A stretch of 6,268 bases of DNA from Promethearchaeota archaeon. GTDB lineage: Archaea; Asgardarchaeota; Hermodarchaeia; Hermodarchaeales; Hermodarchaeaceae. Made by a program: the position numbers and the translations under genes. Positions within the stretch are counted from its first letter, which is position 1. Every line of letters starts with the position of its first letter. The notes beneath the pieces were generated by a model that saw only the letters and a program-made list of their open reading frames with translations, did no database searches and was not told where the DNA came from. The stretch is taken from assembly GCA_048938295.1 (NCBI GenBank), contig JBHLMI010000055.1, forward strand, positions 1-6,268, read 5' to 3'. Shown here in pieces: positions 1,169 through 3,029 of the stretch.

Positions 1169-1201
1169 ATCCAAGCAACTGCGTGTGTGTTTGGAGTGTA
1201 A
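1169..1201 (+). other. Archaeal BHB mini-intron I2 (33 nt) at E. coli 1397/1398
   Basis: Central helix GCAC (1163-1166)/GTGT (1196-1199), bulges ACA (1167-1169) and AAA (1200-1202), and an 8-bp intron stem TCCAAGCA (1170-1177)/TGTTTGGA (1188-1195). BHB-rule cuts restore TTGCACAC|ACCGCCCGTC exactly. Confidence 0.92.
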
Positions 1202-1328
1202 ACCGCCCGTCGCTCCACCCGAGTCAAGTTTGGATGAGCCGCTGTCCGCTCGTCGTCTTCGGATGACGTGTGGGCGGTGTCGAATCGGGGCTCGGCAAGG
1301 GGGGAGAAGTCGTAACAAGGTAGCCGTA

Positions 1329-1387
1329 ACCAGCTCAGCTACGGTTGAGCTGTTTAAATCCCGCTTACGAGCGGGCCCTTGCGGTAA
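1329..1387 (+). other. Archaeal BHB-like mini-intron I3 (59 nt) at E. coli 1513/1514
   Basis: Central helix GCCG (1323-1326)/CGGT (1382-1385) with bulge positions TA|A (1327-1329) and AA|G (1386-1388); ligation gives GCCGTA|GGGGAA. The body has two UACG-capped hairpins (1331-1352, 9 bp; 1360-1375, 6 bp). Flanking helices are weak (only C1330-G1381). Confidence 0.82.
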
Positions 1388-1393
1388 GGGGAA
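1388..1393 (+). rRNA. 6-nt 16S micro-exon GGGGAA (E. coli 1514-1519, apex of helix 45)
   Basis: This is the only GGGGAA between GCCGTA (1323-1328) and CCTGCGG (1426-1432), and both neighbouring BHB registers cut exactly at its edges. Confidence 0.82.
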
Positions 1394-1425
1394 AAGGTTG
1401 GAGATACGGTCTCTGACCCCCCTAC
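1394..1425 (+). other. Archaeal BHB-like mini-intron I4 (32 nt) at E. coli 1519/1520
   Basis: Central helix GGGG (1388-1391)/CCCT (1420-1423), bulges AA|A (1392-1394) and AC|C (1424-1426), then an A-C mismatch and a 9-bp stem GGTTGGAGA (1396-1404)/TCTCTGACC (1410-1418). Ligation gives GGGGAA|CCTGCGG. Boundaries could shift by 1 nt because the G and C runs allow other registers. Confidence 0.8.
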
Positions 1426-1438
1426 CCTGCGGCTGGAT

Positions 1439-1569
1439 CACCTCCTAAGAAATCATTTTCTTCGAAGGTATCCCGCTGTGGATACCTTGGAAGACTAATG
1501 TGCGGTACGGGAGCGGGTGTATTTTGCCGGAAACACGGGTGTTGACCGAATAGTCGGGGTGGACGACCA
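1439..1569 (+). repeat. Direct repeat copy 1: 16S terminal CACCTCCT plus structured 3' trailer
   Basis: Aligns with 2898-3029. By hand count 74/84 nt are identical over 1439-1522 vs 2898-2981, including an invariant 31-mer (1492-1522 = 2951-2981). Similarity continues more weakly to GGTGGACGACCA/GGTGAACAACCA. Confidence 0.95.
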
Positions 1570-1580
1570 TTTTTCTTTTT
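1570..1580 (+). terminator. Oligo-T tract, likely terminator of the rRNA transcript
   Basis: TTTTTCTTTTT directly follows trailer copy 1; archaeal intrinsic terminators are typically oligo-T. Confidence 0.5.
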
Positions 1581-1602
1581 ATAGTAACTTCGCTAGTGCT
1601 AG

Positions 1603-2862
1603 TCATTTCTCGATGAAATTGAGGAGTGAAAGAAGCTGGCTAGCTTGTTCTTGATTTGAAATCCCTTGTATTAGCGCTTTAATTTCATATCCGGTGGTTA
1701 GAGTCAAGTTATTTTGACACCAATCTCGAAGAATATCGCGTTCTTTGATGTGGGCTTCTACTTGGCGACTATATCGATAGAGTTTGACATCTGGATTTCT
1801 TTTTGCGTATTTCTGTACTATCTGTTTGATTTCATTCCATTGTGGAAGAACGGGAGCACCAGTGACGATGAGGAAGCCTCTAAGTGCAGATTTGTACTCA
1901 GGTATTGTTTTGTAGAAAAGAAGCTGCACTAGGGCATTGTTCAATGAACGTTGAGCATAGTGTTGACTAACAGCTTTGCATTCTCCAATGATTTGCGTTG
2001 GAATTCCTCTTTTAGATGATGTGTTGATTATGAGATCTGGGCGTTGTCGGCCATCAGGTCCAAAACAAATCGTGGTGTCAACTACTTTGGTTAGGTTGTA
2101 TTTCTGAATGAATAATTCGAAAAAGAACGGAGACCGGAAAATCTCTTCAAGAAGCGAGGGCTTTGCGAGATTGACACGGCGGAATCGCAGCTGTGAAATA
2201 ACTGGCAAGTGACTGGTTTTTTCGATTGACATCCTGATATGATTAGTTGCGAGGAGAGGAAAATCGTCGATTTGATAGTAGGATTTGAAGTATTCGGTAG
2301 CAGTTGGAGTCAAACGAATAGCACAGTAATTATGTTCTTTTGTCAGAATCTTATGGAGAGTTATTTTCTGTATTGTATTGGTCTTCGTATCAAATAGGGT
2401 GATATTCACCGTATCTCCAATTCGAAGAGTTGTATCAAGAATATACCCATTTTGTAAAGGTAATGTAAAATATCCAGCCGATTCTGTGTGATTGTATCGT
2501 ATCTTGAAGCCTGTAATTTCAAAACGATCAGTTGAGAGCTGGATTGCGGAGTAGGTGTGATATAATTCGGTTGGCAGATTATTTTGGGCAATATAGCCTA
2601 TCATTTGTTCATATGATGAAAAGAACAGAAGATGAGTGATAACCTGTTGACCAGACTGATGGATTGTAGAAGTTAATCGATAGGCTCGATAGAACTGGCT
2701 GTTGTTATATTCAGCTAGAATGAATCGCCCTTTAGGGAATTTTTCTCGCCATTCACGGAGAACCTTAGTTTTCCTTATGAAATGAACTGGAATAACCCCG
2801 AGGGGCTCTATTGCATTAGCTATCTTAGCTGAACCCTGTAATCGAACTGATGAATCTCCCAT
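1603..2862 (-). CDS. 419-aa protein with C-terminal PD-(D/E)XK nuclease domain and unrecognised N-terminal region
   Basis: Long ORF with LEEIF ... RPDLII ... IIGECKAV ... ALVQLLFY ... GFLIVT, matching the E / PD / EXK / QxxxY layout of the PD-(D/E)XK superfamily. The specific family was not identified. Confidence 0.8.
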   Translation of the reverse strand: MGDSSVRLQGSAKIANAIEPLGVIPVHFIRKTKVLREWREKFPKGRFILAEYNNSQFYRAYRLTSTIHQSGQQVITHLLFFSSYEQMIGYIAQNNLPTELYHTYSAIQLSTDRFEITGFKIRYNHTESAGYFTLPLQNGYILDTTLRIGDTVNITLFDTKTNTIQKITLHKILTKEHNYCAIRLTPTATEYFKSYYQIDDFPLLATNHIRMSIEKTSHLPVISQLRFRRVNLAKPSLLEEIFRSPFFFELFIQKYNLTKVVDTTICFGPDGRQRPDLIINTSSKRGIPTQIIGECKAVSQHYAQRSLNNALVQLLFYKTIPEYKSALRGFLIVTGAPVLPQWNEIKQIVQKYAKRNPDVKLYRYSRQVEAHIKERDILRDWCQNNLTLTTGYEIKALIQGISNQEQASQLLSLLNFIEK

Positions 2863-2880
2863 TACTAATCTAGTTTTGCC

Positions 2881-2894
2881 AGTTTAGATAAACT
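2881..2894 (-). promoter_or_regulatory. TATA-like element within a palindrome upstream of the nuclease gene (possible leaderless promoter)
   Basis: Minus-strand TTTATCTAAA (2892-2883) lies 30-21 nt upstream of the ATG. It overlaps the perfect inverted repeat AGTTTA-GA-TAAACT. The TATA match is imperfect. Confidence 0.35.
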
Positions 2895-2897
2895 ACC

Positions 2898-3029
2898 CAC
2901 CTCCTAAGAATTCATTTTCTTCTGGGGTATCCCCGTGGGGATGCCTTGTGAGACTAATGTGCGGTACGGGAGCGGGTGTATCACTCGGGAACACGAGTGT
3001 TGTACACGATCCGATGCGGTGAACAACCA
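2898..3029 (+). repeat. Direct repeat copy 2: orphan CACCTCCT plus 16S 3' trailer, not preceded by rRNA
   Basis: CACCTCCTAAGAATTCATTTTCTTC... matches 1439 onward; hairpin 2924-2947 corresponds to 1465-1488. Confidence 0.95.

Follow-up and report, generated by a model that had tools for sequence, protein, structure and literature searches.

The stretch of DNA analysed here, hereafter called the window, contains the start of a gene-cassette array that is anchored on the 3' end of a 16S ribosomal RNA (rRNA) gene and whose cassettes are separated by copies of the 16S tail. The window comprises 6,268 nucleotides (nt), which are the entire contig JBHLMI010000055.1 (here G000:C48) from a metagenome bin of a Promethearchaeota archaeon (2.5 Mb, 92% complete), and its first cassette carries the gene for a 419-amino-acid (aa) protein with a predicted PD-(D/E)XK nuclease domain. 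With moderate confidence, we consider it most likely that this protein acts as a free-standing homing endonuclease within the 16S-anchored array and that the introns of the same 16S gene are bystanders. For comparison, the class to which the source genome belongs offers 19 species genomes in two genera; the compared genomes are metagenome bins that are 72-92% complete and from which the rRNA contigs are frequently missing.

Two copies of the 16S tail enclose a single nuclease gene

The features of the window on which the argument is built are the following.

1..1446, plus strand: 3' half of the 16S rRNA gene, on which the array is anchored (four insertions; Rfam RF01959 at 506.6 bits over model positions 795-1478)
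1439..1581, plus strand: repeat copy 1, the resident trailer (profile match to positions 3-142, E 4.7e-38)
1493..1522 and 2952-2981, plus strand: exact 30-mer common to both copies, at which the Logan unitigs break exactly
1603..2862, minus strand: nuclease gene (419 aa), convergent with the 16S gene and the sole long open reading frame (ORF) between the copies
2898..3039, plus strand: full-length repeat copy 2, which opens with CACCTCCT (E 3.7e-32 for the profile match, positions 3-140)

As read from the sequence, the mature 16S rRNA ends at position 1446, with 1435-1446 reading ...GGATCACCTCCT. Its final 8 nt, CACCTCCT, open both copies and are followed by a trailer of about 135 nt, which in copy 1 consists of the hairpin HP1 (1463-1494), a centre, a second hairpin (HP2), the terminal hairpin GGTGG-ACGA-CCA and a T-run. 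Without gaps, 1439-1522 and 2898-2981 are 88% identical at a start-to-start spacing of 1459 nt, a gapped alignment extends the repeat to 1439-1581 and 2898-3039, and a comparison of copy 1 with the 2.5-Mb genome ranks copy 2 first after copy 1 itself (E 6.6e-26). A first-pass annotation, made from the letters of the window, had claimed that the 16S tail is duplicated 1459 bp apart around one nuclease-like gene with no recombinase in the window, and all of this holds. The duplication is real, but it is not private to the nuclease gene and represents one interval of a cassette array.

Which of the two copies is the newcomer can be read from the related genome G012, in which the nuclease is absent after the 16S gene and which matches the window at 90% identity over 378 nt of 16S 3' end and trailer. 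The G012 trailer agrees with copy 1 at 86% overall (55/55 in the 5' part and 78% in the 3' part) and with copy 2 at 69%, and the comparison with locus L009 links copy 2 to the nuclease side up to profile column 67. Copy 1 is therefore the resident trailer, and the nuclease gene together with copy 2 forms the inserted unit, which reverses the earlier suggestion that copy 2 is the recipient's own trailer displaced downstream. In the centre segment, copies 1 and 2 are identical in 28/28 positions, whereas copy 1 and G012 agree in only 76%, and the 30-mer identity between the copies is likely a conversion patch, as judged from this pattern of identities.

Since a repeat of this kind invites errors of assembly, it could be argued that the duplication arose from the collapsing or chaining of strain variants at the common 30-mer. 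The unitigs do break exactly at this 30-mer, and their depths in run X1 differ between the 16S end (32), the nuclease gene (16.7) and the next gene (9.8), which means that the path through the repeat needed read pairs. However, the same layout of repeat, gene, repeat and 16S was assembled independently from other samples and other species (L009, L010, L012 and G014:C71), and one contig of run X3 bridges positions 2388-3175 and with them nuclease, copy 2 and next gene. As the independent assemblies agree in order and the bridging contig exists, a misassembly of the duplicated tail, a danger that had been raised beforehand, is unlikely, and its origin from strain variants joined at the 30-mer is hardly credible. 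The corresponding depths in run X2 are 22, 9.7 and 4.8, and loose unitig ends (window 1202-3400, runs X1-X4) attach other hairpin variants to the repeat at 1505, which hints at other junctions in the population.

The 16S tail delimits arrays of unrelated genes

The repeat profile finds 95 matches on 24 contigs of 13 genomes, and matches on two further public contigs. Within each contig the repeats are strictly co-oriented, lie 0.4-4 kb apart and number up to nine per array, and the arrays of G012, G014 and G018 begin at the 16S 3' end. Between successive repeats lie one or two genes, on either strand and of unrelated functions, among them methyltransferases, ferredoxin/flavodoxin, a phosphoesterase, DUF4256 and DUF4386 proteins, an amine oxidase and an ATP-cone protein, so that cassettes of 0.6-3 kb result. 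In the source genome, the repeat is confined to the contig of the window and to contig C31, on which copy 1 matches six or more places.

The repeat unit measures about 140 nt, of which as many as 12 come from the 3' end of the 16S gene; ATCACCTCCTAAGAA is an example from internal copies. From 5' to 3' it consists of the 16S end, AAGAAWTCATTTYCTYC, HP1, the centre, a hairpin CCGG-AAACA-CYGG, the terminal hairpin GGTGG-ACGA-CCAC and the T-run, and a T-rich motif, CAYTTTYCTT, is found at both borders of the repeat body. An alignment of copies from 13 genomes distinguishes two subtypes of the centre, GTGCGGTA.GGAG and GGAGTGGA-GTGGGCAA, either of which may adjoin the 16S gene, depending on the species, and many copies retain only the 3' 55 nt. 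HP1 is backed by compensatory changes in 9/11 pairs; single-sequence folding gives z-scores of 0 to -1.9, and the alignment fold keeps only HP1 and the terminal hairpin. The repeat has no match to an Rfam family, either at the gathering threshold or at E<=1. Its terminal part looks like an rRNA terminator, since the 3' flank of the 23S gene (G000:C20, about 44760-44790, minus strand) ends with GGGGTATACGACCACCACTTTCTTTTT and is thus close to the repeat's terminal hairpin and T-run; this 23S flank is not repeated elsewhere.

Contig C31 of the source genome (L008, 1-9235) is 9.2 kb long, begins inside a 16S-tail repeat and holds nine profile matches with mostly one gene between them; it may be a continuation of the window's array or a strain variant. 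A crude self-comparison of the source genome further brought up short co-oriented repeats at G000:C2 (about 108.9-111.4 kb) and G000:C17 (0-2.8 kb), which may be more arrays of this kind.

The protein in the first cassette is a predicted PD-(D/E)XK nuclease with a fixed place

Neither Pfam and PADLOC nor a PDB sequence search gave a match for the 419-aa protein, and its assignment follows from the predicted structure and from its homologues. The AlphaFold2 model has a predicted local distance difference test (pLDDT) score of 81.8 and contains a C-terminal domain (residues about 229-416) for which Foldseek returned Mrr, Cap4 and TnsA models with probabilities of up to 1.00. Among solved nuclease domains, the closest are those of MspJI (Z 7.3 over 141 residues, root-mean-square deviation (rmsd) 4.2) and AspBHI (Z 6.9 over 130 residues, rmsd 3.9), values that support a common fold only, followed by AF1548 (Z 6.6), with LlaBIII, FokI, PaqCI, McrC and HamA as further matches (overall Z 5.1-7.3). 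Single scores are modest, and nearly all matches to the C-terminal region share the PD-(D/E)XK fold. The catalytic motif of this superfamily, D...(D/E)xK, is present in the alignment of 12 homologues, in all of which D276, E294 and K296 are invariant (motifs RPD276 and GE294-C-K296). The model and the conserved residues together identify the C-terminal half as a PD-(D/E)XK nuclease domain, as the first-pass annotation had proposed.

The N-terminal 215 residues are the best conserved part of the protein (mean column identity 72%) and are modelled at a pLDDT of 87.8 as a beta-rich module with a small closed barrel at about 109-221. Its best matches, PhS018 (Z 7.4-7.7, with rmsd 3.0 over 90 residues at Z 7.4) and PG0164 (Z 7.4-7.5), are too weak for a family name, and Foldseek gave no PDB match for this domain at E<=0.001. 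With regard to an SRA-like domain as in MspJI, the model matched small closed barrels only. The conserved module is probably DNA-binding, and the protein as a whole looks like a sequence-specific endonuclease. On the minus strand, the gene is preceded by a possible promoter, as read from the sequence:

2878..2892, minus strand: TATA-like box TTTATCTAAA, about 20-30 nt upstream of the start codon of the nuclease gene

The family is small, with 12 full-length homologues among 5.8 billion proteins at about 42-100% identity, and an exhaustive profile search yielded 8 hits that add a few distant homologues of 357-376 aa. It is confined to this archaeal lineage and present in one copy per genome. 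All seven homologues of 417-420 aa whose loci have readable DNA are flanked by the 16S-tail repeat, and on every contig that reaches far enough (G000, G014/L009/L010 and L012, at 44-100% protein identity) the nuclease gene directly follows the 16S gene, with varying genes beyond copy 2. The distribution is patchy, as the empty site of G012 illustrates, and the family as such occupies a fixed site beside a conserved gene with presence and absence among close relatives, as a homing gene does. The decay and loss that belong to the life cycle of such genes are likewise visible in relics at internal array positions, namely the final 36 codons of a nuclease gene at G012:C19:1244-1351 and a second C-terminal relic about 60 nt past the half repeat at 17100 in G002:C1.

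The question whether homologues sit next to rRNA genes, raised with the earlier proposal, can hence be answered positively, and the fact that they are tied to ribosomal DNA and not to restriction-modification operons favours its general idea, a free-standing nuclease of the homing type behind the 16S gene. In the short contigs of three distant homologues (L070 524-2152, L071 359-1903 and L014 986-2617), each gene is followed by a co-oriented gene for a 155-167-aa protein of no family, and neither a 16S-tail repeat nor an RNA gene was detected there.

A second array at the actin gene carries an unrelated endonuclease

The same architecture occurs a second time in the source genome. On G000:C18 (L074, 3997-11470), the last ~115 nt of the actin gene, a unit of coding end, stop codon, hairpin and T-run, are repeated at least eight times downstream in the same orientation, with genes for glyoxalase, hydrolase, DinB, SBF transporter and DDAH between the copies. 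The slot next to the anchor is again taken by an endonuclease-like gene.

G000:C18 10202-11335, plus strand: LAGLIDADG-like gene (377 aa), adjoining the actin gene and convergent with it (ESM Atlas, motifs)

Pfam and PDB profile searches assigned no family to the 377-aa protein. Its family counts only 15 proteins. It carries a zinc finger at the N-terminus and two motifs of nine residues, ending with DG and EG, that are invariant, and its ten best hits in ESM Atlas are all LAGLIDADG endonucleases (features 0.92), with a structure match to LAGLIDADG at TM scores of 0.59/0.83 over residues 103-377. The source labels of its homologues are Promethearchaeota or Hodarchaeota. The full-length gene adjoins the true actin 3' end in 5/5 genomes of the class, in one of them with a stop codon, and two public contigs, at 71% and 55% identity, have it beside actin as well; each actin locus with the full-length gene has tail copies further downstream. 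Three C-terminal relics of this gene stand beside internal actin-tail copies, one of them in an array that has the intact gene, and one relic, of 33 aa, lies at G000:C18 6445-6543.

By profile comparison, the 419-aa nuclease and the enzyme of the actin array are unrelated, and still both arrays have their intact endonuclease genes next to the anchor and decayed relics further down. We also considered the nuclease as a general engine of all arrays and rejected this, as there is one copy per genome and the actin array has another enzyme.

The introns of the 16S gene are distributed independently of the nuclease

Four insertions interrupt the 16S gene of the window.

123..739, plus strand: intron I1, 617 nt, with an ORF at 181-729 (182 aa) (insertion relative to the 16S model)
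1170..1202, plus strand: intron I2, 33 nt, ORF-less, between GCACACA and CCGCCCGTC (alignment with relatives)
1328..1386, plus strand: intron I3, 59 nt (boundary +/-1), ORF-less, in helix 45 before GGGGAA (relatives without the insertion)
1394..1425, plus strand: intron I4, 32 nt, ORF-less, in helix 45 after GGGGAA (relatives without the insertion)

That three ORF-less introns lie upstream of copy 1, as had been claimed from the sequence of the window, is confirmed by relatives and by contigs of other organisms from the same metagenomes that lack them; in the latter, position 1169 runs straight into CCGCCCGTC and 1328 joins 1426 via GGGGAA only. I2 is present in all four relatives whose contig spans the site, one of which, G018, has I2 alone. 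I3 is absent from L009, L010, L012, G014 and G018 and present in G012, there with compensatory changes in its stem. I4 is absent from G018 and present in G012, G014, L012, every genus-mate seen and all nuclease-bearing genomes seen. Since I2 occurs in all four relatives covered and I4 in every genus-mate seen, these two introns are uninformative on a link with the nuclease, and the weight falls on G012 and on the genomes without I3. In G012, I2, I3 and I4 are all present, and the first cassette after the 16S gene holds a zinc-ribbon protein, an ATP-cone protein and DUF4386, with no nuclease, whereas in G014/L009/L010 and in L012 the nuclease adjoins the 16S gene and I3 is missing. Nuclease and introns are thus distributed independently, and from this distribution the introns appear as bystanders.

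This bears directly on the mechanism that the first-pass annotation had put forward, namely collaborative homing, in which the nuclease would cut intronless 16S genes in helix 44/45, I2-I4 would protect their own allele and be co-converted, and copy 2 would be the displaced trailer. Collaborative homing is an established phenomenon in phages. One of its enzymes, F-CphI, is described in the literature (PMC6083498), and in the window the introns and the nuclease gene lie within 450 nt of each other, with I4 accompanying the nuclease in all bearers seen. However, an independent distribution of nuclease and introns had been named beforehand as evidence against the proposal, and this is what the co-occurrence in G012 on the one hand and in G014/L009/L010 and L012 on the other amounts to. 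The empty-site orthologue of the trailer is moreover copy 1 and not copy 2, and cleavage had been expected near 16S positions 1397 or 1513-1519, whereas the exchange points described below lie not at helix 45 but some 120 nt beyond the introns, where the repeat ends in its T-rich 3' border. Finally, the actin array has the same architecture with no intron involved. We consequently regard collaborative homing as very improbable. What survives of the earlier proposal is a free-standing nuclease tied to the 16S 3' end by its position, patchiness and relics and by the parallel at actin, and what falls is its link to the introns.

The protein encoded in I1 (182 aa) has no Pfam family; its C-terminus is winged-helix-like (ESM Atlas features 0.88-0.90), it has a weak match to PADLOC PDC-M05A (1.8e-4), and it is no obvious homing endonuclease. 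Larger intron loads exist in the genus, as the complete 16S gene of a genus-mate (G014:C71, L064, 619-4212) spans 3594 nt for 1478 model positions and accordingly contains about 2.1 kb of introns. The remainder of the window, beyond copy 2, is occupied by a further gene and a partial one.

3070..5838, minus strand: next gene beyond copy 2, encoding a 922-aa membrane-anchored beta-helix protein (NosD/Beta_helix; Pfam PF05048, 4.5e-33, and PF13229, 4.4e-26)

This gene is not syntenic, since relatives carry other genes beyond the nuclease. It is followed by an AT-rich spacer and, at 5999-6268, by a partial ORF that runs off the end of the contig and belongs to no family (weak Bbp19-like match, 0.013).

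Cassettes are shuffled between loci

Comparisons between loci demonstrate that the cassettes are shuffled between species. When repeat pairs from different places have a common upstream flank, the downstream side differs in 34/35, and when they have a common downstream flank, the upstream side differs in 29/30; in one clear case, G014:C9 and G007:C226 differ by a cassette that was gained or lost, with repeat halves that overlap. In 12/16 pairs, it is only from the T-run on (profile columns 132-144) that the repeat is linked to the downstream flank, and the linkage to the upstream flank reaches a variable depth, to columns 8-31 in many pairs and to 67-131 in others. A fixed crossover core was considered and could not be established, since the exchange points vary. 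Concerted evolution within a genome was likewise rejected, as the identity of the centre is 0.62 between copies of the same genome and 0.60 between copies of different genomes. With regard to enzymes, none of the array contigs of the 19 genomes carries a tyrosine recombinase (PF00589), with matches on other contigs of these incomplete bins, and no Y1 transposase was found in the source genome.

From our point of view, three explanations for this shuffling deserve attention. The first is a site-specific system similar to integrons, in which a recombinase encoded elsewhere, for example a XerA-like enzyme that occurs once per genome, acts on the repeats, with the nuclease being cargo and likely a Type IV or restriction-type defence enzyme. 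Co-oriented repeats with one or two genes between them, the heavy shuffling and the sharp junction at the T-run border, which has a similar T-rich motif (CAYTTTYCTT) as its counterpart at the 5' border of the repeat body, would all be expected from such a system, as would the preservation of HP1 by compensatory changes, which is known from folded recombination sites. A conserved tyrosine recombinase of 313-315 aa is indeed present in most genomes, and the role of cargo would suit a protein whose structural neighbours are MspJI and AspBHI and which has defence-type genes for company in related arrays. However, the array contigs themselves are all devoid of a recombinase, the repeat has neither the R/L box layout of attC sites nor a GTTRRRY end, and its exchange points are not fixed. 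Such a system would also give no account of why two unrelated endonuclease families occupy the anchor-proximal slot with relics further down, or of the small size of the nuclease family and its restriction to the repeat. We therefore rate it as a possible but rather unlikely explanation.

Serial direct repeats of a gene's 3' end are a known footprint of repeated integration, for example by elements at tRNA genes. One could hence speculate, as a second explanation, that the cassettes are remnants of integrase-type elements that inserted in tandem at the 3' end of the 16S or actin gene, each carrying a copy of that end, and that the nuclease is a leftover of one of them. The direct repeats of the anchor's 3' end, their serial arrangement and their restriction to the downstream side agree with this, but the cassettes measure 0.6-3 kb and contain one or two accessory genes that are unrelated, the array contigs of the 19 genomes showed neither integrases nor relics of them, and the sole recurrent DNA enzymes are the two endonucleases in the anchor-proximal slot. 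Tandem accretion thus appears improbable.

The third explanation, and the one towards which we incline, is homing by the nuclease itself. In the repair route that we envisage, the nuclease would act on genomes or array positions without it and cut the tail repeat close to the T-rich 3' border, the left end would invade the anchor-side tail of a repeat-gene-repeat donor, synthesis would proceed through the nuclease gene and the second tail, and the second tail would then anneal to the remainder of the recipient's tail. The two tail copies would act as portable homology arms, with which the cassette could enter whatever downstream context, and the nuclease gene and copy 2 would form one cassette that is placed just behind the T-run of copy 1. 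The same breaks could allow the insertion, replacement or loss of any repeat-flanked gene, and the outcome would be an integron-like array without a site-specific recombinase. Such a route would account for a resident copy 1 and an imported copy 2, for the junction at the T-run, for the conversion patch and for the independence from the downstream context. The relics retain only the 3' ends of the genes. A more far-reaching version, which we offer tentatively and as a minority view, is that unrelated endonucleases, a PD-(D/E)XK enzyme at 16S and a LAGLIDADG enzyme at actin, cut the tails of essential genes and thereby drive the capture of genes in the manner of a homing-based, recombinase-free analogue of integrons.

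Several points weigh against homing by the nuclease. Its connection with the array is one of position, distribution and the parallel at actin, and arrays also occur where there is no intact nuclease (G012). As both flanking repeats are full length, a target within the repeat would be present in the nuclease-bearing allele as well. The closest solved nuclease domains, those of MspJI and AspBHI, belong to modification-dependent restriction enzymes, and genes of defence type, among them those for an OLD-like ATPase, NERD and PLD, occur in relatives' arrays, so that the role of a defence passenger fits too. The repeat body (columns ~30-135) is linked to neither flank in most pairs, and the exchange points vary (at about columns 25, 50, 67, 92, 105 and 135), for which reason homologous repair and the action of a trans-acting site-specific enzyme are not separable on these data. 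Lastly, the counts of absences carry little weight, since the bins are incomplete and frequently miss their rRNA contigs.

Relation to known systems

The closest published architecture is that of the mobile open reading frames (mORFs) of fungal mitochondria, which are known from atp6 of Allomyces macrogynus and from atp6, atp9, cox2 and nad3 of Glomus (PMC3630166). There, too, two diverged copies of the 3' end of a conserved gene enclose a free-standing endonuclease gene, an arrangement found here at both 16S and actin, and there, too, the distribution among close relatives is patchy; the mechanism of mORFs is endonuclease-driven double-strand-break repair, as it would be in the present case. 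Unlike in mORFs, where the foreign copy is gene-proximal and the native one is displaced, the resident copy is proximal here and the distal one travels with the nuclease, as is evident from the G012 trailer, which matches copy 1 at 86%, without a difference in the first 55 columns, and copy 2 at 69%. Further differences are that the anchor is a chromosomal rRNA gene of an archaeon, that the enzyme is of the PD-(D/E)XK type and encoded on the opposite strand, and that the tail is reused to delimit a whole array of unrelated cassettes.

Within the Asgard archaea, the mobile element HeimM2 of Candidatus Heimdallarchaeum (8 kb) is described as lying precisely behind the only 16S gene and as carrying a homologue of homing endonucleases, and the authors proposed that the endonuclease serves site-specific integration (PMC8813620). 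By this description, both cases concern an endonuclease-carrying insertion right behind the 16S gene of an Asgard archaeon. The HeimM2 enzyme is, however, described as a homologue of the homing endonucleases of rRNA introns, and the parts of that paper which deal with the element do not mention a duplicated 16S tail or a cassette array (PMC8813620).

With integrons, including the sedentary chromosomal and the archaeal ones (PMC9668308), the arrays have in common co-oriented repeats that bound mobile single-gene cassettes of mixed function, a cassette order that varies between relatives and growth from a fixed end. Unlike integrons, they have no IntI or other recombinase beside them, as far as the 19 genomes with their incomplete bins reach, their repeat is a copy of the anchor gene's tail without the R''/L''/L'/R' boxes of attC, their genes lie on either strand and their exchange points are variable. 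In the consensus of 30 full repeat copies there are three local hairpins, no palindrome runs from end to end, and the unit closes with a T-run where attC has GTTRRRY.

The free-standing homing endonucleases of T4-like phages (seg, mob) and the collaborative homing of F-CphI with the psbA intron (PMC2790892, PMC6083498) provide a further parallel, in that a nuclease gene between conserved genes is copied together with its flanks into genomes that lack it, as we suppose for the 419-aa nuclease. In contrast to the phage systems, neither a phage nor a dependence on introns is involved here, and the flanks are two copies of one repeat, so that homing would not depend on the downstream context. With MspJI and AspBHI (4f0p, 4oc8), the nuclease shares the order of a beta-rich and, in its case, predicted DNA-binding region at the N-terminus and a PD-(D/E)XK domain at the C-terminus; in the structure comparison, its N-terminal barrel matched small barrels and not an SRA domain, and there is no sequence-family match.

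A literature search found no paper that describes cassette arrays delimited by copies of the anchor gene's own tail. New in the present analysis are the identity of the C31 repeat with the 16S tail, the anchoring of the array on the 16S gene, and the endonucleases in the anchor-proximal slot of both arrays. Even if the nuclease were a passenger, anchor-tail-delimited arrays would as such be an organisation that the literature we found leaves undescribed. They are also of practical relevance for metagenomics, since they break assemblies at rRNA genes and can tie 16S contigs to the wrong neighbours.

Overall, the two loci provide two natural pairs of enzyme and site, namely the nuclease with the 16S tail and the LAGLIDADG-like protein with the actin tail. 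If the homing reading is true, the few known homing enzymes with a PD-(D/E)XK fold would be joined by a family whose target in the genome, the 16S tail, is fixed. Homing endonucleases with gene tails as homology arms would then also offer Asgard archaea a general means of acquiring, shedding and trading accessory genes at safe sites downstream of essential genes, a role that was previously credited to integrons and integrases.

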